Below, in pieces: positions 21,839 to 60,071 of a DNA stretch of 64,000 nucleotides (its first letter is position 1; every line of letters begins with the position of its first letter). A program made the position numbers and the translations under genes. Below the pieces are notes generated by a model, which ran no database searches, was not told the origin of the DNA, and saw nothing but the letters and a program-made list of their open reading frames with translations. The stretch is taken from NCBI GenBank assembly GCA_016935315.1, contig JAFGRD010000141.1, positions 12,616 to 76,615 of the forward strand, in the 5' to 3' direction. Source of the stretch: Pirellulales bacterium (GTDB lineage Bacteria; Planctomycetota; Planctomycetia; Pirellulales; Thermoguttaceae).

Positions 21839-21904
21839 GCCCGAGAAGAGAGGCTCCCCGAAACGTGAGTCGCGTTGGACGGCAAGGCACAGTGCCGGGA
21901 ACCC

Positions 21905-21955
21905 CGGGTGTCTGGTGTGCCCGGGTGTCTGGTATGCCCGCGTGTCTGGTATGAT
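21905..21955 (+). repeat. Three tandem 17-bp direct repeats upstream of xseB.
   Basis: cccgggtgtctggtgtg / cccgggtgtctggtatg / cccgcgtgtctggtatg, then atggtct. The last unit overlaps a TATGAT -10-like hexamer. About 75 bp upstream of the xseB ATG. Confidence 0.7.
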
Positions 21956-38203: not shown

Positions 38204-39655
38204 CTATCCGGCCCGCAACTGCCGCTCGACCTGCCGGATCGCTTCATCCACGTCCAACGTGCCCGCGGCCAATCGGAGCGGTTGCCCGCCGGCCATCCAG
38301 CCGTCGACCCGCTTCTGGGCCGAAATCACGGTGCTGTGGCTGCGGCGCCCGAAGAACCGACCGATCTCGCTCAGCGCGGCCCGCGTGTGCTTCCGGGCGA
38401 GCCACATCGCCAACATCCGCGGATGGCTGACCCGCTTCGCCTTGCCGCCCGTCTGCAAACTGGCCGGCTCCAGCCCGAACACGTCGCAAACCGCCTTCTC
38501 GATATCCGGCAGCCGCACCGGGCGGGCGCTCTGGCGGATCATTTCGGCCAGCGCCTCCTCGGCCAGCGAAACCGTGATCGGGCGGCCCAGGGCTTCGCTG
38601 GTCGCCTGGAGGCGGCACAACGCCCCGGCCAGCTCCCGGGCGTGATTCGTCAAACGCGAGGCGACGAAATTTCGCACGTCCTCCGACAGGCTCATCTCTC
38701 GCCGCTGGGCCATCTGGCCGACAATTTGCAGCCGGGTCTCGTAGTCGGGCGGTTCGATCCGGCAAACCATGCCGCTTTGCAGTCGCGTGACCAACTCGGG
38801 CCCGAGCTCGACCAGTTCGGCGGGCGGGCGATCGGACGCAAACACCAATTGCCGCCCGTCGCGAAGCAACGCTTCGGCCGTGTGCAACAGTTCGACCTGC
38901 GTGGCCCGTTTGCCCGCAAGGAACTGGAGATCGTCGAGAATCAACAAGCCCACGCCCCGGCAGCGGCGACGAAACATCGGCAGCCCGCTGCCGCGGAGGG
39001 CCTCGAGAAACTCGGTCGTGAACTGCTCGGCCGAGAGATAGATCGCCGAGGTTTGACGGTGCAAACGTCGCGACGCCGTGAAAACGCCCTCCAGCAAATG
39101 GGTCTTGCCGACGCTGGTGGGGCCATAGATCAACAGCGGGTTCATCTCCCCCGGCCGCCGCGCCACCATGGCGGCCGAAGCAGCCGCCAAGGCGTTGCTC
39201 GGCCCCGACACGAACGAGTTGAGCGTGGCAAACTTGCGCCGCGACGTGCCGTTGACGGCCGCCGGCGAGGAGGATTGCGCCGGGCGTTGCTGCGGCCCGA
39301 TGCGCTGGGCGCCCGCACGCGGCTTGGCCGTTCCGTTCGACCCGTTCTTGGCGGCCGTGGGACCTGGAGCACTAGCCAAGGTGGCATCGATGCGAAACTC
39401 CAACTCGACGCTGGCTCCCAGCGTGTCGAGACACGCCTGCTGGATCTGCTGGCGGAAGTTCGCGCGGATCCAGTCGAGAAAGAAGCGGTTTGGTACGCCG
39501 ATGCGCAGCACATCACCGCCGAAATCGAGCCGCGTGCTGGCGCCGAACCAGAGTTCGAATCGCTCCTTGCCGACCCTTTCGGCCAATGCGTCACGCATTG
39601 CCGAAACGACTTCCATATCGTCCGTGGTCACGTCCGATCCATCCCCGGCGCGCAC
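38204..39655 (-). CDS. dnaA: Chromosomal replication initiator protein DnaA.
   Basis: ...LLIYGPTSVGKTHLLEG... Walker A; ...LLILDDLQFLAGK... Walker B; C-terminal DNA-binding ...RMLAMWLARKHTRAALSEIGRFFGRRSHSTVISAQKRV.... Start may be GTG 39655 or ATG 39616. Confidence 0.93.
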   Translation of the reverse strand: MRAGDGSDVTTDDMEVVSAMRDALAERVGKERFELWFGASTRLDFGGDVLRIGVPNRFFLDWIRANFRQQIQQACLDTLGASVELEFRIDATLASAPGPTAAKNGSNGTAKPRAGAQRIGPQQRPAQSSSPAAVNGTSRRKFATLNSFVSGPSNALAAASAAMVARRPGEMNPLLIYGPTSVGKTHLLEGVFTASRRLHRQTSAIYLSAEQFTTEFLEALRGSGLPMFRRRCRGVGLLILDDLQFLAGKRATQVELLHTAEALLRDGRQLVFASDRPPAELVELGPELVTRLQSGMVCRIEPPDYETRLQIVGQMAQRREMSLSEDVRNFVASRLTNHARELAGALCRLQATSEALGRPITVSLAEEALAEMIRQSARPVRLPDIEKAVCDVFGLEPASLQTGGKAKRVSHPRMLAMWLARKHTRAALSEIGRFFGRRSHSTVISAQKRVDGWMAGGQPLRLAAGTLDVDEAIRQVERQLRAG

Positions 39656-39995: not shown

Positions 39996-40928
39996 CTAAC
40001 TGGAACGACCAAACACCTTTAGATAGACGCCGCGCCGTTCCCACGCCCGAAACCCGACGGCCGCGTACATCCGAGTCGCCGGCTCGTTCTCGGCGTCAAC
40101 CGCCAACACCAGCCGCCGCCGCCCCGCCTGACGGGTGAGCCATTGGGCATGCCGGGCGATGTCCAGCCCCCAACCGTGACCTCGATGCGCCGCCGCCACG
40201 CCCATATAAACCAGCTCCCAGTTGTCGTGTTCCGCATGGTCGGCCAACAGCAAACAGCCCACGTCCTCGTCCGCGTGGCGGGCAATCAACCAGCGGGCGG
40301 GGTCAAACTGTCCAGTGGCCCGATAGCCGGCCAACACGTCTTCGGTTTCGCGCACACCATCGAGCTCCGGACAGTCGCGAGTCTGTTCATAGGTGGCCTC
40401 TACCATGCGAGCCAGCCGCTGGTGATTGGCCACACTGTAGGCCTCGAACTGAAGCGGTGATGTCGGCAAATGCGAAGGGAACTGGTCTTCTGCGCAGGCC
40501 AGGTAAAGCAGGTCGGTCAGGCGGTCGAATCCCCCGGCACGCAACAACCCGTCGTCCGCATGGCGCTCCGACGGCAAATGAACCTGCGCCACGCAGACAC
40601 GGTGGTTGGCCAGCCAGTCGGCCGCGGCGTCCAGAAGCTGCCTCGCAATCGTGGCCGCCTCGTCGGGCACAACTCGTGGGACCCAGACCGTGGCCGTCCG
40701 CCCAGGCTGCAACTGTGCAAGCACCGCCCCCACCAGTCGTCCGGACTGATAGGCCCCCAACAACCCCTGCCGCGAGAGTTCGCCGGAGGCAACCGCCGCC
40801 AGCCACGCCGCAACCTGCTGCTGCCGTTGGGCAACCGGCAACCTGGAGCACACCAATGCGAAGGCGTCGGCGCGTCGGTCGGCAGAAACGGCACGAATCT
40901 CCGTAGGCTGATCGTCGGTCACACTCAT
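39996..40928 (-). CDS. Tandem GNAT-family N-acetyltransferase (mycothiol-synthase-like, two acyl-CoA acyltransferase domains).
   Basis: ...LVYMGVAAAHRGHGWGLDIARHA... and ...RMYAAVGFR... GNAT motifs. Confidence 0.65.
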   Translation of the reverse strand: MSVTDDQPTEIRAVSADRRADAFALVCSRLPVAQRQQQVAAWLAAVASGELSRQGLLGAYQSGRLVGAVLAQLQPGRTATVWVPRVVPDEAATIARQLLDAAADWLANHRVCVAQVHLPSERHADDGLLRAGGFDRLTDLLYLACAEDQFPSHLPTSPLQFEAYSVANHQRLARMVEATYEQTRDCPELDGVRETEDVLAGYRATGQFDPARWLIARHADEDVGCLLLADHAEHDNWELVYMGVAAAHRGHGWGLDIARHAQWLTRQAGRRRLVLAVDAENEPATRMYAAVGFRAWERRGVYLKVFGRSS

Positions 40929-40995: not shown

Positions 40996-42180
40996 CTATC
41001 GTGCGAGACGCGGGGTGAATTCGGCCCTGATCTGCCGCGTGGCGGCAAAGTCGATTCGGCCGGCGTCCAGATCGGGCAGGCCCTGGTGCTGGAAGATGAC
41101 GCGGTGCGTTTCTGCCGAGACGTTTTCGATCGTGCAGGGCGTGGTGCAGGGTGTTCCGTCGGGTCGCAGTTGCCGTACGCCGTCCAGCAGAATCGTGGCC
41201 TCGTACGGCTCGGTGATGAAATTGACCTGCACCCGCGGCGGATTGCCGGGCCAGAAGCAGACGGCGGCCAACGCGGCCGCGGCGGCCAACGCTGCGATCG
41301 AAACCGCGATCCAGCGCCGCCGGCCATGGCTTTCCGCCGCCGGCTTGCGGGGCTCCGCAATCTCGCGGAGCATCGCGTCGGCATCGGCGAATCGCTGCTG
41401 GGGATCCGGCTGGCAGGCCCCCAGGGCCAATCGCACCAGCAGGCACAGGGTCGGGTCGGCCGCTACGTCGGCGGCCCTCTCGCCCAGCCGCGGAAAACTG
41501 TCGGCCGGCAGCCCCGTAACCATCTCGTAAATGGCCAATCCGGCCGCGTACACGTCGGCCCGGGCGTCCATCCGCCCGTCGGGAGGCATGTATTTTTGGG
41601 TACCCACGCGGGAAATCTGCGGATTGGCCTCGGTCAGCAGGCCGAAGTCGGCCAGCTTCAATTGCCCGTCGACAAACAGGCAGTTGGCCGGCTTCACGTC
41701 GCGGTGGACCATGCCGGCCTCGTGCAGCGATGCCAGGCCGGCCAACAATTGGCGGGCACAGCGGAGGCAGTCATTGACGGGCAAGGGACCGTCGCCCAAG
41801 CGGTTCAGCAGAGTGGCCGCTCGATAATCGGCGTCGGGCGACGCCGGCCTTCCGGTCGCATCGTCGGCCAGATCCATCACGTAAAACAGATGCTCGGCCG
41901 TTTGGCCCACGTGGTGAATGGTCAGCAGATTCGCGTGTTGGCGGCGGAGGTTGGCTTCCAGCCGCGTGATCGACGTGATTTCCCGTCCGGCCGGATCGGT
42001 GGTGCCCCGGCGGCGCAGCGAGATCACCTTCACGGCGCGCAGATGCCCCGTGGTCCGATTCGTGGCCAGCCAAACCCGACCGAACCCCCCCTGTCCGATC
42101 GGCCGAATCAACTCGAAGTCGGGCACTTCCGGAACGGTCTCGTCGTCGTCCAGCCGGAATGGTACTGTGGGATCGCACAC
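40996..42180 (-). CDS. Ser/Thr protein kinase with a C-terminal TM helix and an extracytoplasmic PEGA domain.
   Basis: GTG start right after the sigma gene. IGQGGFGRVWLA; HRDVKPANCL; DFGL; TM WIAVSIAALAAAAALAAVCFW; C-terminal ...ATILLDGVRQLRPDGTPCTTPCTIENVSAETHRVIF.... Confidence 0.8.
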   Translation of the reverse strand: MCDPTVPFRLDDDETVPEVPDFELIRPIGQGGFGRVWLATNRTTGHLRAVKVISLRRRGTTDPAGREITSITRLEANLRRQHANLLTIHHVGQTAEHLFYVMDLADDATGRPASPDADYRAATLLNRLGDGPLPVNDCLRCARQLLAGLASLHEAGMVHRDVKPANCLFVDGQLKLADFGLLTEANPQISRVGTQKYMPPDGRMDARADVYAAGLAIYEMVTGLPADSFPRLGERAADVAADPTLCLLVRLALGACQPDPQQRFADADAMLREIAEPRKPAAESHGRRRWIAVSIAALAAAAALAAVCFWPGNPPRVQVNFITEPYEATILLDGVRQLRPDGTPCTTPCTIENVSAETHRVIFQHQGLPDLDAGRIDFAATRQIRAEFTPRLAR

Positions 42181-42191
42181 GGGGCGGAGTC

Positions 42192-42884
42192 CTAGCGTGA
42201 ACGCATGGTTTTCTCGATTCGGGTGGCGACCGACCGCTGAACGGCGGCCGAGGGCTGCAACCGCACGGCCTGTTTGACGCGTTGGTCGAGCCGCCCTTCG
42301 TCGGCGTAGCTTCCGCCGAGCTCCTGCAGCCGCCGAAGCACGCGCCGCCGCGCCTTGTAGGCCGCGTTGCGCGAGAGCCCTGTGATCCTGGCGACCTCGA
42401 AGCCCGACAGCTCGTGGAGCGTCAGCAGCTCGAACGCCAAATACGCTTCGGGACTCGTCTCGCGGCGGACGACGTCCAGCAGCGACATCAGCAAAACGCT
42501 CTCGAAGGCCTGTTCCCAGGCAGCTTCGGGCGCGGGATCGTCGGCAGGCGGCTCGGGCGGCCGATCGTCGCTGTTGCCGCCGCGCGGCCGCACCCGTTCC
42601 GACGGCCGGCGGCGATACTCGGCCACCTTGTTGCGGACCACCATGCCCAGCCAATCGCGAAAACGGCCCCGCTGCGGGTCGTAGCGAAACACGTCGCGGT
42701 GCTCGAAGATCCGGAGCATCACGTCTTGAACCACCTCCTCGGCGGTGTGGTCCGAGCAGCCGCGGTGCCGGGCATAGGCATGAATCAGCGGCCAATAGCG
42801 GTGGAAAAACTCGTCCCACGCCAGCGCGTCGGCTCCGTCGCGGAGTCGTTGAATCAGGGTCACCCTCGTTTTGCCGCTCATCAC
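42192..42884 (-). CDS. ECF-type RNA polymerase sigma factor (sigma-70 family, region 2 + region 4).
   Basis: ...DEFFHRYWPLIHAYARHRGCSDHTAEEVVQDVMLRIFE... region 2; ...LLTLHELSGFEVARITGLSRNAAYKARRRVLRRL... region 4. Immediately upstream of the kinase, like the ECF-STK pairs of Planctomycetes. Confidence 0.8.
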   Translation of the reverse strand: MMSGKTRVTLIQRLRDGADALAWDEFFHRYWPLIHAYARHRGCSDHTAEEVVQDVMLRIFEHRDVFRYDPQRGRFRDWLGMVVRNKVAEYRRRPSERVRPRGGNSDDRPPEPPADDPAPEAAWEQAFESVLLMSLLDVVRRETSPEAYLAFELLTLHELSGFEVARITGLSRNAAYKARRRVLRRLQELGGSYADEGRLDQRVKQAVRLQPSAAVQRSVATRIEKTMRSR

Positions 42885-43009
42885 GTCGGGATTCTACCGC
42901 AGATCGGATGGTTTTCAAGAAAGCCGGGCCGATTTTCCCGCTTCGGCGCATATCTCTATCGGCGGCGGACGGTCCGCCGCACCATCGCAACGGAGTAGCC
43001 GCCTCTCAA

Positions 43010-43065
43010 ACAACTACGCAGACGCCGGCAACTACGCAGACGCCGGCAACTACGCAGACGCCGCC
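43010..43065 (+). repeat. Three tandem 18-bp direct repeats in the divergent promoter region.
   Basis: caactacgcagacgccgg repeated three times. Lies between the sigma factor (minus) and the 43282 gene (plus). Confidence 0.75.
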
Positions 43066-43281
43066 TCTCCTTCCATGGTAAACTGAAACGTCACCGCCTG
43101 ATAGCCGCTTCGCCTCGCGCACAACGATCTTGGAGCCCGTCGGAAACAAGACGGGCGCGCGGGAAAGATAGCGGCGCGATGCGACCGTGCCGGGAAACCC
43201 CCGTCGCGGCGGCCGGACGATGCATCGCCGGCCGGCGTACCGCATCAGGCGGGCAGAAAACAGACAGCAAAGGTTAAAACG

Positions 43282-46200
43282 ATGAAAGCCGCCTTCTGGT
43301 CGTGGGTCCTCTGGTGCGCCGTCGCTCCCCAGGTGCAAACATCCCAGACGCCCGAAACCCTGCTCTATATCCGCACCACGCCCTCCGGGGCCGAAATCTC
43401 CCTGGACGGCAAGCCGCTGGGCACGTCCGACGGGCTGTTTCCAGTCAAGCCGGGAACCTACAAGATCGTCGTCGACTTGCAGGACCACCAGCCCAAGCAG
43501 CAAAGCATCACTCTCCGCGACGGGCAAATCACGCGGATCGAGTTGGAATTGCAGGCCACAGCCGGACGGCGCCGCGCGACGGCGCGCCCGCTGATTCCAC
43601 GGCCTGCCTTCGGCCGCTTCGACGTTCGCCTCGAGCTGCGGGTCGCCCCGGCAGCGCCCGGATGCGAGTTCGCCACACTTGCCAAGGAACACGTCGCCCG
43701 GTACCGGAAGGACCTCCAAACAAAGGGGCCGCTTGCCGGCCGCGTGCCCGAGGCGCTTTACGCCTGGTTCGAGCTGCGGGTCGAGCCGTCGCCGGAACTG
43801 ATCACCGCCGAGTATCAGGGGGCGACCTACGTCCTGCTGTCGAACCGCCCCGACGAGGTCATGCTGGCCTCGCGCGACGGTGCCGACGCCTGGGGACTGA
43901 CGTCGGTCGACGTGACGGCCGACGGTCGCGGAGCGCCGGCCATCGGCGCAGAGATGGACGAGGCCGGCGCGAGGCTTCTGGCGGCCTTGAGCGGGTCGCA
44001 CCTCGGCCAGCGCGTGGCGATACTGCTGTGCGACCAGGTACTGGCAGCGCCGGTCGTCCGCGGCAAGATCTCCGAGAGGATTGCGATCACCGGACAGTTC
44101 GAGCGCCGCGAGGTCGAAGAGCTGGTCGCGGCGTTGAGGGCCAGCCTGGCCCGGCCCGGCGCCGGTGCGCCGACCGCCACAGTCGAGAGCCGCGTGTTGG
44201 CCGACGCCTGTGCCCAAATGTTGGGCGACTTTGTCGCTGCGCGGAAGCAGGCCGGCGGCAAGATCCCCGACGATTGGGATTCTCCGCAGTTCGTTCCCCG
44301 AACGATCGAGCAGTGTAAGCGGCAGTATCCCGGCCCGTTTGCCGTGACGCCGGAAGAGGAACGCCGGTTCACCGCGGGCGAGTTTGATGACGCGGCTGCT
44401 TCGCGACGCGCCGGCGAGGCCATCCAATCGTTGACCAAGGACAAGGTCGAGTTGCCCGCCGGAGCCCAGTACCTCATCGACGAATTCCAGACGGGAAGGC
44501 TCCAAGGGGCCCGGCTGGAACTGGCCGCGCGGTTACTTGCGGCACAGCTCCAGGACACCGCTCAAATGCAGCACCGCTCTGTCCAGACGGCCCTCAAGCT
44601 CCTTGAGACCTCCTTGGCGTGCTATCAGCTCGACCTGGGAGTGTATCCGACGACTGACGAGGGCTTGGCCGCGCTGACCAGCAAGCCGGCCACCGCCGGG
44701 ACCCAAGAGAAATGGCAAGGTCCCTATGCCAGCGAGTTGCCCCGAGATCCTTGGGGCCACGACTATCGATACCGCCGGCCCGGCAAGCACCAGCCGGATT
44801 CGTTCGACCTCTGGTCGGTCGGCCCGGACGGCCTCGACGGCACGGCGGACGACGTGGGCAATTGGCCCGAGCACGACGATGCCGCGGACGACAACCGGCC
44901 GGCCGACCCGAACCGCCGCCCGCGATACTTCGTGCGTCTGGTGTTGGGCGACGACACCATGACCTTGGAAGGTGCCACGACCACGTGGGAGGAGTTGCCC
45001 GAGTTGCTGGAGCGAGTCCCCAACCGCGGACAGACCGTGTTGGAGATTGCGGTCGCGGCGGAGAAGCCAAGCGACAAGCAGCGTGCCGACGCGATGCGTC
45101 GGGCCAGCGGCCTGGCCCGGCGTTTCGGGTTTGAATACCCCAGTATCGTCGGTGTGCATCCCCTGGGGTCAAGGGGGGCGCCGCCCCAGACCGACTCCCC
45201 CAAAGCGGCCCCAGCGCCGGAGACGTCGGACGGAGCGGCCAAGGAGGTCTTGCGGCGCTACAGCCAGGCCGTTTGGGCCGAGGCATTGCCCCGGCTCGAA
45301 TCCGCGTCGGGGCCCGAGGCCACGGAGATGATCCAACAGGTCGCCATGGAGGCGGCGCAGCGCCACATTCTACCGCAGAAAGACCTCGTTGCCCGATACG
45401 CCCTGAGTCGAATGCCCGACGCCGAGCCGGTCGATGCTTCGCAATGGACGGAGAAAGTGGTGTTCCGCCCCGAGGACGATGCGGCCGATTCCCCGCGGCA
45501 ACCGACGGCCTTCTGGCATCCGATCGTGGTGGCAGCCGGACTGCAGCAACAGGTGATGGTCAAGGACATGTCGGCGAAGCGTTTCGGCACGTTTGCCATG
45601 TCGCGCTTCTACGCCCCTGCGCCGACCACCGTCTTGGATCGCAACCTGGACCATCCGGTGATCGCGACGGCCTTCGGCGACCAGTTGCTGGTGGCTCATC
45701 TGCGCCGGGCCGACGACGGTCTTTACCACGGCGAGCAGGTCCGCTGGCTGACAAAGCGGCCCGCGGCCACGCAGGATTACTTCCTGCTGCCGGTCGGCGC
45801 CACGCCGGCGCAGCGGCTCGTTCACACCTTCAGCAAGATCGTCTGGAACGACTTGCTGCCACGGTTGGCCGGGCAGGAGCCGGAAGTCCTCGCAAAGGAA
45901 TTGGGGAGGTTTTCCCGTCGCTTTTTCGTCAAACACCACGAGCTGCTGAAGGCCGAAGGCGAGCGGCTCCTGGCCGAATTGCCGAAGTCGGAACCCATCG
46001 ACTTCTCGCAATGGACATCCCGCTTCCCGGAAACCACCGACGAAATGTCTGAGGCGATGCGGCACGCGATGGCCTCGGAGCGGGCTGATATCGGTATCGG
46101 CGATGTGCACCTGTGCTTCAACCCGGTCCAGATGGCGGCCATGATGCAGCAAACCACGCTGGCCAGGCTGGCCGGCCCGGGAATGCTCGGGCTGCGTTCG

Positions 46201-46410
46201 ATGGTGCGGGCGGCGGCCGTGTATCCCTTGGACGCGATCCTCGACGGCGATCCCCAACGGCCCGCCATTGCCACACGGATGGGCGACGAGCTGTCCATCG
46301 TCCGCTTGCGTCGCCAGCCCAACGGTGCCTACGAATTCGACCGGATTGAGTGGCTGGTCCGTGCGAAGGCCGATTCGAAAGCGACTAAGGCGGCGCCCCG
46401 TCGCAAGTGA
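43282..46410 (+). CDS. Large secreted chimeric protein: N-terminal PEGA domain, SecD-P1-head-like domain, internal GspG (T2SS pseudopilin)-like domain, ExbD/TolR-like domain, and a C-terminal region of unknown function.
   Basis: PEGA: LLYIRTTPSGAEISLDGKPLGTSDGLFPVKPGTYKIVV. SecD-like: ...QRVAILLCDQVLAAPVVRGKISERIAITGQFERREVEELVAALRA. GspG-like: ...YQLDLGVYPTTDEGLAALTSKP...WQGPYASELPRDPWGHDYRYRRPGKHQPDSFDLWSVGPDGLDGTADDVGNW. ExbD-like: ...YFVRLVLGDDTMTLEGATTTWEELPELLERVPNRGQTVLEIA.... Confidence 0.7.
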   Translation: MKAAFWSWVLWCAVAPQVQTSQTPETLLYIRTTPSGAEISLDGKPLGTSDGLFPVKPGTYKIVVDLQDHQPKQQSITLRDGQITRIELELQATAGRRRATARPLIPRPAFGRFDVRLELRVAPAAPGCEFATLAKEHVARYRKDLQTKGPLAGRVPEALYAWFELRVEPSPELITAEYQGATYVLLSNRPDEVMLASRDGADAWGLTSVDVTADGRGAPAIGAEMDEAGARLLAALSGSHLGQRVAILLCDQVLAAPVVRGKISERIAITGQFERREVEELVAALRASLARPGAGAPTATVESRVLADACAQMLGDFVAARKQAGGKIPDDWDSPQFVPRTIEQCKRQYPGPFAVTPEEERRFTAGEFDDAAASRRAGEAIQSLTKDKVELPAGAQYLIDEFQTGRLQGARLELAARLLAAQLQDTAQMQHRSVQTALKLLETSLACYQLDLGVYPTTDEGLAALTSKPATAGTQEKWQGPYASELPRDPWGHDYRYRRPGKHQPDSFDLWSVGPDGLDGTADDVGNWPEHDDAADDNRPADPNRRPRYFVRLVLGDDTMTLEGATTTWEELPELLERVPNRGQTVLEIAVAAEKPSDKQRADAMRRASGLARRFGFEYPSIVGVHPLGSRGAPPQTDSPKAAPAPETSDGAAKEVLRRYSQAVWAEALPRLESASGPEATEMIQQVAMEAAQRHILPQKDLVARYALSRMPDAEPVDASQWTEKVVFRPEDDAADSPRQPTAFWHPIVVAAGLQQQVMVKDMSAKRFGTFAMSRFYAPAPTTVLDRNLDHPVIATAFGDQLLVAHLRRADDGLYHGEQVRWLTKRPAATQDYFLLPVGATPAQRLVHTFSKIVWNDLLPRLAGQEPEVLAKELGRFSRRFFVKHHELLKAEGERLLAELPKSEPIDFSQWTSRFPETTDEMSEAMRHAMASERADIGIGDVHLCFNPVQMAAMMQQTTLARLAGPGMLGLRSMVRAAAVYPLDAILDGDPQRPAIATRMGDELSIVRLRRQPNGAYEFDRIEWLVRAKADSKATKAAPRRK

Positions 46411-49202: not shown

Positions 49203-50012
49203 ATGAAAGGGAAGACCATTTTTGGGGCGCTCCTGGTGAGCGTCGCCCTATGCAGCCAGGGGTTCGGTTTCGAGCTTCTGGACCGGATGCTAGGGCTGAA
49301 CTGCGGTGGCTGCGGCAGTTGTGCTACCTGCTGCGAGCCCGCATGCTGCGAGGCGCCGAAGTGCTGCGCGCCGGAACCCGCTTGCTGCGAAGAGCCTGCT
49401 TGCTGCGAGCCCTCGTGTTGCGATCCGTGCTGCAAGCCGAAGTGCGACCTGTTCGGCGGACTTAAGGGACTGCTCGCCTGCAAGAGTTGCTGCGATCCGT
49501 GCTGCCAACCGAGTTGTTGCGAGCAACCCACGTGCTGTGCAGAGCCTGCTTGCTGCGAGGAACCGGCTTGCTGTGAGAAGCCGGCCTGCTGCGACCCGTG
49601 CTGCAAGCCGAAGCTCAGGGACCTGCTGGGTATCTGCAAGCCGAAATGCTGCCAGCCCACGTGCTGTGCAGAGCCGGCTTGCTGCGAGGAACCGGCTTGC
49701 TGTGAGAAGCCGGCCTGCTGCGACCCGTGCTGCAAGCCGAAGTGCAACCTGCTGGGGCTGCTCGACGGCCTGTTCTGCTGCAAGAAGAAGTGCTGCCAGC
49801 CCGCTTGCTGTGAACCGGCCTGCTGCGAGGCGGCATGCACCTCGTGCAGCGGCTGCGGCGGCGGTACGGTTGAGCAAGCCGCGCCTGCGGCGGCCCCCGC
49901 GGCCGGCGAAGAGGCCCCCGTGCCCGATCCCCCGGCTCCGCCCGATCAGTCGGCTTCGGTGAGGCCCAGCCGCAGCATCCTGCAGGCTAGCCGCATCATC
50001 GTCCGGCGCTAA
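49203..50012 (+). CDS. Secreted ultra-cysteine-rich repeat protein (about 70 Cys; CCxPxCC / CC[EKQD]P[AST]CC repeats; keratin-associated-protein-like).
   Basis: Signal [20 protein letters not shown]. Then ...[39 protein letters not shown]... repeated three times. C-terminal Ala/Pro-rich tail. An AGGAG Shine-Dalgarno precedes the ATG. An internal 120-bp near-perfect tandem duplication spans about 49535-49745. Confidence 0.7.
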
Positions 50013-58982: not shown

Positions 58983-60071
58983 ATGCCGATCGAGACTCGC
59001 TGTGGAAAGTGTGGTGGAAGGTTTCGCGTGGCCGACAAGTATGCCGGCAAGCGGATCAAATGCCCCAAGTGCCAGCAGGGAACGATCGAGGTCCCGGCCA
59101 CGGCGGAATCGAAACCCGCGCCCCCCGGCGAGCCGGCCAAGGCGTCCATGACTCCCCAGCGGCCCATGGCCGCCGAGAAGCCGTCTTCACCTGCACCGCC
59201 CACGACACCGTCCGTGCCCTCCGCGCCGTCCGTGGTGCCCTCCGCGCCGTCGGAGCCTTCCGCGCCGTTGGTGGCCGCCGCACCGCCCACGTCCTCTCCG
59301 TCGTCCGTGGGCTCGCCGTCGAAATGGTATCTCCAGACCGAAGAGGGCGACCAGTACGGGCCCGTTTCCCGGGAAGAGCTGGACGAGTGGCTCGGCGAAG
59401 GACGCATCGACGCTTCCTGCCAACTGCTCCGGGAAGACTGGAGCCAGTGGAAGTGGGCCGAAGATGTCTTTGCCGAGTTGGGCGGGGCGGCCGCCGAACC
59501 GCAACAGGCGGCTGCGGCCCAAGGGCAACCGTTTGCAGGCATCGGCAAGACCACGCCGCAGGAAAGCGAACCTGGCCCCTATGCCTCTCCCCAGGTCTCC
59601 ACCGGCGACGCGACGCCCGTCGGAGGAGGTCCAGCAGGAGGGCTCGGCGTTCGCGGGCGTCGGGCGCTGAGCGAAACGAAGCCGTGGGTGGTCTTTCTGG
59701 CCATCCTCGGGTTTGTGATTGGCGGGATCGGGGTGCTTACCGGTCTGCTCTTTTTGGCGGCAAGTGCAGTCGGTGCAGGCCTGCCCGGTATCCTCATAGG
59801 GCTCTGTGCGTTCGTCGGGCCGGTCATCACGCTGGTGCTGGCCTACTACCTTTTCTCATACGGCCAGCGCATTGCCGCCTATCTGCGGACCGATCGGCCC
59901 GCCGACCTCGAGGCCGCCCTGACGGCGCAGAAGTCGTTCTGGAAACTGGCGGGCCTCGTAACGGCGGTCTACCTGGGCTTCTGCGTGCTGGTGATGGTGG
60001 CCGTGATGGCTCTGGGCGGTCTGGGGGCCATCCTTCTACAGAATGCCGCCGGTGGGCCACCGGGGCCATAG
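58983..60071 (+). CDS. Zinc-ribbon + Pro/Ser-rich linker + DUF4339 (GYF-like) domain + C-terminal four-TM domain protein.
   Basis: CGKCGGRF...CPKCQQG zinc ribbon. PTTPSVPSAPSVVPSAPSEPSAP repeats. ...WYLQTEEGDQYGPVSREELDEWLGEGRIDASCQLLREDWSQWKWAEDVF (DUF4339). GGGGAGGAAC Shine-Dalgarno before the ATG. Confidence 0.6.
   Translation: MPIETRCGKCGGRFRVADKYAGKRIKCPKCQQGTIEVPATAESKPAPPGEPAKASMTPQRPMAAEKPSSPAPPTTPSVPSAPSVVPSAPSEPSAPLVAAAPPTSSPSSVGSPSKWYLQTEEGDQYGPVSREELDEWLGEGRIDASCQLLREDWSQWKWAEDVFAELGGAAAEPQQAAAAQGQPFAGIGKTTPQESEPGPYASPQVSTGDATPVGGGPAGGLGVRGRRALSETKPWVVFLAILGFVIGGIGVLTGLLFLAASAVGAGLPGILIGLCAFVGPVITLVLAYYLFSYGQRIAAYLRTDRPADLEAALTAQKSFWKLAGLVTAVYLGFCVLVMVAVMALGGLGAILLQNAAGGPPGP

Follow-up and report, generated by a model that had tools for sequence, protein, structure and literature searches.

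In a 64,000-nucleotide stretch of contig JAFGRD010000141.1 from a Pirellulales bacterium (referred to as the window), we analyzed a locus in which the genes for an extracytoplasmic function (ECF) sigma factor (42192-42884, minus strand) and a Hanks-type Ser/Thr kinase (40996-42180, minus strand) are divergent from a gene for a large protein that begins with a PEGA domain (43282-46410, plus strand). Together, the sigma factor, the kinase and the divergent PEGA-headed gene form a real, recurrent module that is widespread in planctomycetes. Taken as a whole, we consider it reasonably probable that the locus is a modular three-gene planctomycete cassette with a conserved promoter element and a kinase-activated sigma factor, and that an 18-bp tandem array in the spacer between the divergent genes does not belong to it. 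An earlier note on the same DNA had described a self-contained envelope-signalling regulon consisting of sensor kinase, sigma factor, direct-repeat operator and PEGA target. The recurrence of sensor kinase, sigma factor and PEGA protein agrees with that grouping, whereas the direct-repeat operator has to be removed from it.

The conservation of the locus was followed in a scan of species-representative genomes, which returned 333 relatives. From these, 79 loci were taken, sampled from Pirellulales, Thermoguttaceae, Planctomycetaceae, Phycisphaerae and Kuenenia metagenome-assembled genomes (MAGs); the nearest relative with enough flanking DNA shows 71-75% identity in the sigma factor. The kinase gene was found directly downstream of the sigma factor gene in 77 of the 79 loci, with gaps mostly of -28 to +50 nt, and a divergent upstream gene whose beginning resembles the N-terminal ~90 residues of the 43282-46410 protein was identified by tblastn in 71. 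Five of the eight loci with no such match have just 175-412 nt of contig upstream of the sigma factor gene, which is too short to judge. Sixty-one of the 62 full-length syntenic partners carry an N-terminal Pfam PEGA domain, and beyond it their bodies vary both in length (106-1127 aa) and in content (SecDF_P1_head in seven, WD40 in six and CarboxypepD_reg in seven). The PEGA-headed gene is a conserved partner of the sigma/kinase pair; that the 43282 gene starts with a PEGA domain had already been observed in the earlier note. The cassette is also found more than once per genome; at least 14 assemblies contribute two or three of the loci, and in L014 two cassettes are located on one contig.

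Comparison of distance matrices showed that the sigma factor correlates with the kinase catalytic domain (r = 0.74) and, to a lower degree, with the kinase PEGA domain (r = 0.54). The PEGA head of the divergent protein hardly follows the sigma factor or the kinase catalytic domain (r ~0.2), and mirror-tree analysis of the PEGA head against the kinase PEGA domain gave no signal (r = 0.18, partial r ~0.1). Pfam scans of the flanking open reading frames (ORFs) revealed no anti-sigma domain; they returned GNAT, DnaA and PQQ propeller matches, and nothing for the other neighbouring ORFs, Pfam being the only collection searched. These data support the sigma factor and kinase as a conserved, co-evolving unit with no adjacent anti-sigma gene in the Pfam scans, and the layout corresponds to that of the kinase-associated ECF groups described in the literature (PMC7826278, PMC8999054), in line with the earlier proposal.

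The sigma factor ORF can be read from a GTG at 42884, but its homologues and the NCBI model P0001 begin one codon later, at ATG 42881, which gives a protein of 229 aa. With this shift in the start, the earlier description of sigma factor and kinase genes as adjacent, co-directional and 11 bp apart holds. The protein scores 47 bits against Pfam Sigma70_r2 (cut-off 24) and 70.6 bits against the TIGR02937 sigma70-ECF model (cut-off 42.9; residues 22-188), Sigma70_r4_2 stays under its cut-off at 15.2 bits, and SigE of Mycobacterium tuberculosis is aligned by a HMMER profile with residues 14-197. Judged by these matches, it is a member of the ECF (group IV) sigma-70 family. In total, 785 homologues were found, and the best 120 listed share 60-75% identity with the window protein.

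In the HMMER alignment, HTAEE of the window sigma factor falls on HDAED of M. tuberculosis SigE, so that TAEE stands in the place of the DAED motif in region 2.2; the first Asp alone is exchanged and two Glu are kept. Residue 46, at the first position of TAEE (codon 42744-42746, minus strand), is Thr in 189 and Ser in four of 193 unique sigma homologues, and a hydroxyl residue is thus present in 193 of 193. Thr46 is on this basis a candidate phospho-acceptor. Further conserved Ser/Thr residues are T5, T8, S43 and T225. Past region 4, the sigma factor carries a C-terminal extension of ~40 aa (42195-42314, minus strand) which is kept in all aligned homologues, and for which AlphaFold2 (AF2) predicts two helices, 198-207 and 212-228, with moderate confidence (predicted local distance difference test, pLDDT, ~72). 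The earlier note had suggested a phosphorylation site in this extension, a placement with weaker support than T46 in region 2.2. Cys42 (codon 42756-42758) is likewise invariant and is located three residues ahead of His45-Thr46, within C-S-x-H-T-A-E-E.

The kinase gene begins 11 bp past the sigma factor stop codon and encodes a protein of 394 aa identical to the NCBI model P0125. Its catalytic domain (41506-42114, minus strand) matches Pfam Pkinase over residues 23-225 (E 3.3e-32), and the translation contains an intact HRD motif (MVHRDVKPAN), DFG motif (LADFG), G-loop (GQGGFG) and VAIK-type Lys (RAVKV). Homologues numbered 770 at E <= 1e-30, the best 120 listed having 59-74% identity. A single transmembrane helix is predicted at approximately residues 290-310 (41251-41313, minus strand) from the hydrophobic stretch WIAVSIAALAAAAALAAVCFW that follows GRRRW, read by eye. 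Beyond it lies a PEGA-like beta-sandwich ectodomain, predicted to be extracytoplasmic (approximately residues 318-390; 41011-41229, minus strand). PEGA was not listed at E <= 0.1 in the Pfam scan of the full-length kinase, and the isolated C-terminus reached 15.8 bits (E 0.013) against Pfam PEGA (PF08308), under the gathering cut-off of 20.8. Among orthologous kinase C-termini, 21 of 28 match Pfam PEGA (E <= 1; best E 3.4e-8), and hhalign aligned the kinase C-terminus profile with the PEGA-head profile at a probability of 92.6% (E 4.6e-7). The AF2 model of the ectodomain is an all-beta, small beta-sandwich (pLDDT 94.3); its best Foldseek matches were weak (E 0.08-0.4) and included the SusC N-terminal extension (NTE) 9hfj and the transthyretin-like domain of carboxypeptidase D. 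The domain is best named PEGA-like, a predicted assignment that stands at the level of family, profile and fold only. The architecture claimed for this protein, a catalytic domain, one transmembrane helix and a PEGA domain, is therefore retained for the first two parts, and for the third at family level, whereas the window's own score falls short of the Pfam cut-off. A homologue search by the 109-aa C-terminus of the kinase alone recovered four fragments only, and a full-length query was required. The ectodomain contains an invariant T-P-C (T35/P36/C37) with a single Cys, and this T-P-C together with Cys42 of the sigma factor could constitute redox or metal sites.

Upstream of the sigma factor gene, iterated nhmmer searches and alignment identified a conserved promoter element of ~75 nt for the sigma-kinase operon (42891-42965, minus strand). 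It consists of a CTA-type block (about 42957-42960), block A GATATGCGCC (42945-42954), block B AAAATCGGCC (42927-42936) and sigma-70-type matches to a -35 hexamer, TTGAAA (42913-42918), and a -10 hexamer, TAGAAT (42891-42896), all on the minus strand. The consensus across loci is CTA-N5-tAT(a/t)TGCGCc-N11-aAATCnGnC-N5-tTTCTTGa-N17-TAgAAT, with TAT[A/T]TGCGC and AAATCnGnC as the consensus of the two upstream blocks. The element was present once per locus in 54 loci and in the window, without exception ahead of the sigma factor gene and on its strand, and was found nowhere else on either strand of the 953 kb searched. In the window, the core TTGAAA-N16-TAGAAT agrees with the sigma-70-type consensus at 10 of 12 positions and is the sole such site in 42700-43400. 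The start codon is located exactly 7 nt past the -10 hexamer in seven loci, as is GTG 42884, which is in frame with the sigma factor, in the window. This distance is the spacing expected for leaderless transcripts, which are thereby implied; a second class of loci has leaders of 61-68 nt. An Rfam search of the element gave no match and RNAalifold predicted no pairs in 45 aligned elements, and we therefore regard the element as a DNA signal and not an RNA. An RNA hairpin was considered and rejected, as the 6-8-bp stems found near the AAATC block in single loci differ in register and are not reflected in any RNAalifold consensus pair.

On the opposite side of the spacer, no corresponding signal was identified. 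Searches by nhmmer with the speed filters off, using the whole element as well as its A+B or C+D halves, gave matches on the sigma side only and none facing the PEGA gene, while k-mer enrichment on the PEGA side recovered just two signals, the sigma element in reverse complement and the ribosome-binding site. Some loci have sigma-70-like TTGAAx-N17-TACCCT sites facing the PEGA gene, as seen by eye. The proposal that the PEGA gene is a direct target of the sigma factor thus finds no cross-locus conserved motif in the PEGA orientation, and a role of the PEGA gene as sigma output is weakened, because the DNA-binding regions of the sigma factor are conserved and yet no shared motif faces this gene. 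In L001, L008, L010, L014 and L034, a shared leader-like sequence, ACCCTG-N5-AGGGC-GGGGAATTC-N5-GCCCGAAAGGAG, precedes the PEGA gene and would fold as two short hairpins before the ribosome-binding site; this sequence is missing from the window.

The array in the spacer of the window (43011-43064) consists of 2.9 copies of the 18-bp unit CAACTACGCAGACGCCGG, was detected both by a repeat search and by Tandem Repeats Finder (TRF; 43011-43063, period 18, 2.9 copies, 100% matches, score 106), and is lineage-specific. It had been described as three perfect copies at 43010-43065; the repeat is real, but two copies are perfect and the third ends in C instead of G, and the coordinates were one or two bases off. 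The unit is unique within the window and at least three matches were obtained in 0 of 100 shuffles, which shows that the array is a real duplication and not a chance occurrence. An imperfect 18-nt direct repeat brackets it (42990-43007 and 43052-43069), and since its copies are perfect and bordered in this way, the array is taken as a recent slippage duplication. None of the 71 related sigma-PEGA spacers contains it. When TRF was run on 72 such spacers, notable arrays were found in six, with periods of 16, 18, 22, 30, 31 and 33 bp and unrelated sequences. All the DNA fetched contains 34 such arrays in 953 kb, six of them in the 64-kb window alone, so that the 18-bp array is one of many. A scan of metagenome contigs for the 18-mer gave 35 single-copy chance matches and no array, a result that is silent on copy-number variation, and the sole other contig of this organism (L115, Logan assembly) stops inside the array. 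We conclude that the array is a private, recent slippage duplication in an unusually long (400 bp) spacer, outside the conserved system.

Based on these findings, we infer the following course of events. The sigma-kinase pair would be co-transcribed constitutively from the ~75-bp element, with its near-consensus sigma-70-type core, as an mRNA that is leaderless or nearly so, and the two conserved upstream blocks are probably binding sites for a regulator or for RNA polymerase loaded with the ECF. The kinase would answer an envelope cue through, or beside, its PEGA-like ectodomain and phosphorylate the sigma factor, the likeliest site being Thr46, in the place of the first Asp of DAED, the motif through which ECFs contact the beta' clamp of RNA polymerase. 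Phospho-T46 would then complete the acidic patch for core binding and lead to formation of the holoenzyme, as in EcfP/PknT, but at another position of the motif. The C-terminal extension of the sigma factor could add to the control by T46 or replace it. The PEGA-headed protein, apparently exported given its hydrophobic N-terminus, would be functionally coupled to the sigma-kinase pair, either as output or as a periplasmic partner.

Several observations weigh against this course of events. Two acidic residues are kept in TAEE, and the sigma factor may for that reason bind core RNA polymerase unphosphorylated; T5, T8, S43 and T225 are conserved as well. The sigma-70-like core could instead be the promoter of the ECF itself. 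Neither the nhmmer nor the k-mer searches revealed a cross-locus promoter motif facing the PEGA gene, and there is hardly any co-variation between the PEGA head and the PEGA domain of the kinase. The array may still affect expression in this strain, as non-conservation is no proof of inertness.

Among the other explanations, control of the sigma factor by its C-terminal extension (through autoinhibition or partner binding), with a kinase that acts on other substrates and not on the sigma factor, would fit the conservation and predicted helical structure of the ~40-aa extension and the two acidic residues retained from DAED, and ECFs controlled via C-terminal extensions are known (PMC8999054). 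This is quite improbable in view of the near-universal operon layout, the co-evolution of sigma factor and kinase, the invariant Ser/Thr inside the DAED-equivalent motif and the lack of an anti-sigma gene among the flanking ORFs scanned by Pfam. Somewhat unlikely is that the TTCTTGA-N17-TAGAAT core, either alone or together with blocks A and B, is not a housekeeping-sigma promoter but the autoregulated promoter of the ECF, giving positive feedback. Both hexamers are unusually strongly conserved across orders and paralogues, the element occurs upstream of the sigma factor gene only, and autoregulation is usual among ECFs (PMC7826278). The 10 of 12 agreement of the core with the sigma-70 consensus argues the other way, as do the absence from it of AAC and CGT, the hallmarks of ECF promoters (PMC8103513), and the need of a phosphorylation-gated sigma factor for a basal supply that is independent of itself. 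That the 18-bp repeats are an iteron-like operator for the sigma factor or a response regulator, governing both divergent promoters of a self-contained regulon, is very improbable. The shared spacer does contain a genuine repeat, and tandem arrays are somewhat over-represented in the equivalent spacers, where 6 of the 34 arrays fall in ~3% of the surveyed sequence, but this enrichment mostly vanishes when non-coding DNA alone is counted. The earlier note, from which this idea comes, had itself named absence or variability in relatives as evidence against it, and we reject it because the array is absent from the related loci, where the arrays that do occur differ in sequence and period. In addition, the high conservation of the DNA-binding regions of the sigma factor implies that its site should be conserved too, and the sole conserved DNA is the sigma-proximal element; the near-perfect copies and the flanking direct repeat indicate recent slippage; and five other such arrays are present in the window.

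A further explanation concerns the PEGA-headed protein, which may act as the periplasmic input, its constant head docking on the PEGA-like ectodomain of the kinase and its variable body sensing, in the manner of FecA to FecR. We consider this unlikely, although several observations point to it: 61 of 62 partners combine a constant head with a variable body; the kinase ectodomain, of just ~80 aa and highly conserved, is unlikely to be a sensor of diverse cues; the PEGA head and the kinase ectodomain are homologous according to hhalign; the searches found no sigma-type promoter motif in the orientation of the PEGA gene; and several cassettes with differing bodies occur per genome. However, head and kinase PEGA domain gave no co-variation signal, paralogous cassettes in one genome would need pairing specificity, and we know of no precedent for PEGA-PEGA heterodimerisation. 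Rather unlikely, likewise, is a plug-in sensory system in which the constant PEGA head docks on the kinase ectodomain and an interchangeable body (pseudopilin-like, SecDF-head, WD40 and others) gives the signal. If this were true, planctomycetes would diversify their envelope sensing by swaps of the third gene while using the same kinase-sigma transmitter and promoter element, and the cassette would achieve by means of a kinase what FecA/FecR does in cell-surface signalling. FecI/FecR/FecA serves here as an analogy only: it is likewise an ECF system linked to an envelope protein with a constant, dedicated N-terminal domain and a differing remainder, but the present locus has no TonB-dependent transducer, FecR-type anti-sigma or STN domain, and its transmitter is a kinase.

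We thus return to the three-gene cassette with a kinase-activated sigma factor, for which related systems have been described. ECF43 sigma factors are devoid of the acidic DAED in region 2.2 and are activated by a neighbouring kinase that phosphorylates a Thr in the motif (PMC8999054, PMC8103513, PMC13147305). In EcfP/PknT from Vibrio parahaemolyticus and EcfK/PknS from Xanthomonas citri, both of ECF43, the ECF gene likewise adjoins the gene for a transmembrane Hanks kinase with no anti-sigma gene (PMC8999054, PMC13147305). The window sigma factor shares with both systems a Ser/Thr inside the DAED-equivalent motif of region 2.2; however, the EcfP motif is STTA with the phospho-Thr in third position, whereas here it is TAEE, with the Thr in first position and two acidic residues kept. 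The window sigma factor differs from the characterised ECF43 members in both motif and phylum, and from EcfP/PknT and EcfK/PknS also by its conserved C-terminal extension, the PEGA-like ectodomain of the kinase and the conserved divergent PEGA-headed gene. Another parallel is offered by ECF59-ECF62 (formerly ECFSTK1-4) and ECF217, planctomycete ECFs next to which, as here, a Ser/Thr kinase is conserved and an anti-sigma factor is lacking (PMC7826278, PMC8999054), and which are predicted to work via kinases (PMC7826278). The window sigma family almost certainly belongs to one of these groups.

The array, for its part, resembles iterons and other direct-repeat operators in consisting of short tandem direct repeats in a divergent promoter region. 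It differs from them in that the repeats are not kept in relatives, the copies are near-perfect, no cognate binding protein is encoded nearby and a period of 18 bp does not correspond to a whole number of helical turns. The logic of the sigma/kinase pair is already known, and the locus adds another case of it. The PEGA-PEGA cassette, the Thr of TAEE and the promoter element may be details not described before; in the open-access PMC and bioRxiv literature, we found no paper linking PEGA domains to ECF/kinase pairs. To our knowledge, kinase-gated ECF sigma factors have been studied in two proteobacterial pairs only, and the planctomycetal groups, the most numerous of all, have yet to be characterised. 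For these, the locus offers three handles: an invariant Thr in the first position of the DAED motif as a candidate phospho-switch unlike that of EcfP, a sharply bounded promoter element of ~75 bp for which a leaderless start is predicted, and a third, conserved partner whose PEGA head stays constant while its body varies. The 18-bp "operator" is removed as a false lead.

The divergent protein of the window has 1042 aa and is predicted to be secreted, based on a hydrophobic, signal-peptide-like N-terminus seen by eye. Its PEGA domain comprises residues 27-92 (43360-43557; E 1.4e-9, 38.1 bits against a cut-off of 20.8) and is followed by Pfam matches to SecDF_P1_head (residues 194-287; 43861-44142) and to a T2SSG/GspG pseudopilin-like domain (residues 428-528; 44563-44865), all on the plus strand. 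Downstream of these is a recurrent module of ~95 aa (residues ~544-639; 44911-45198, plus strand), which has no Pfam match and was recognized by tblastn in other loci. It also occurs in the PEGA-headed partners of L002, L007, L014, L036, L059, L066, L068 and L071, twice in some, and resembles, by eye, the periplasmic domains of ExbD/TolR. The C-terminal half of the protein consists of an internal duplication, two copies of a ~190-aa domain with no Pfam match (45238-45774 and 45808-46380, plus strand; 27% identity, E 9e-20), and a region similar to this domain is found in the partner protein of L038. Pfam scans of five segments of the divergent protein, covering residues ~101-193, ~287-426 and ~531-1042, gave no match.

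On the other side of the locus, a DnaA homologue (Bac_DnaA, DnaA_N and Bac_DnaA_C) is encoded two genes downstream of the kinase, beyond a gene for a GNAT acetyltransferase (38204-39655 and 39996-40928, respectively, both on the minus strand). The region around the DnaA homologue could lie close to the origin of replication; no clear switch was seen in the GC skew across 38-48 kb.

Tandem arrays are also present elsewhere in the window, at 21903-21953 (17 bp x3.0), 49514-49594 (36 bp x2.2), 49662-49720 (18 bp x3.3) and 59208-59285 (18 bp x4.2), as well as within the sigma factor gene itself (27 bp x2.0; 42517-42570). The five other arrays in the window imply that short tandem duplications are common in this genome. 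Among the relatives, arrays between the sigma factor and kinase genes lengthen the usually tight junction in L060 (8672-8887; 29 bp x7.4), L010 (8704-8757) and L012 (8688-8735). Between the promoter element and the 18-bp array of the window, the repeat search also identified a perfect palindrome, GCGGCGGAC-G-GTCCGCCGC (42962-42980). As a conserved feature this GC-rich palindrome was rejected; GC hairpins of differing sequence were found at the corresponding position in 17 of 45 relatives, where ~11 were expected, which is a weak enrichment. The sigma-PEGA spacers of L005, L016, L018, L020, L022 and L038 contain a unit similar to repetitive extragenic palindromic (REP) sequences, GCGCGACC-N4-GGTCGCG followed by GCTTTATA, which recurs, sometimes in tandem, between the genes of several Thermoguttaceae and Planctomycetaceae MAGs.

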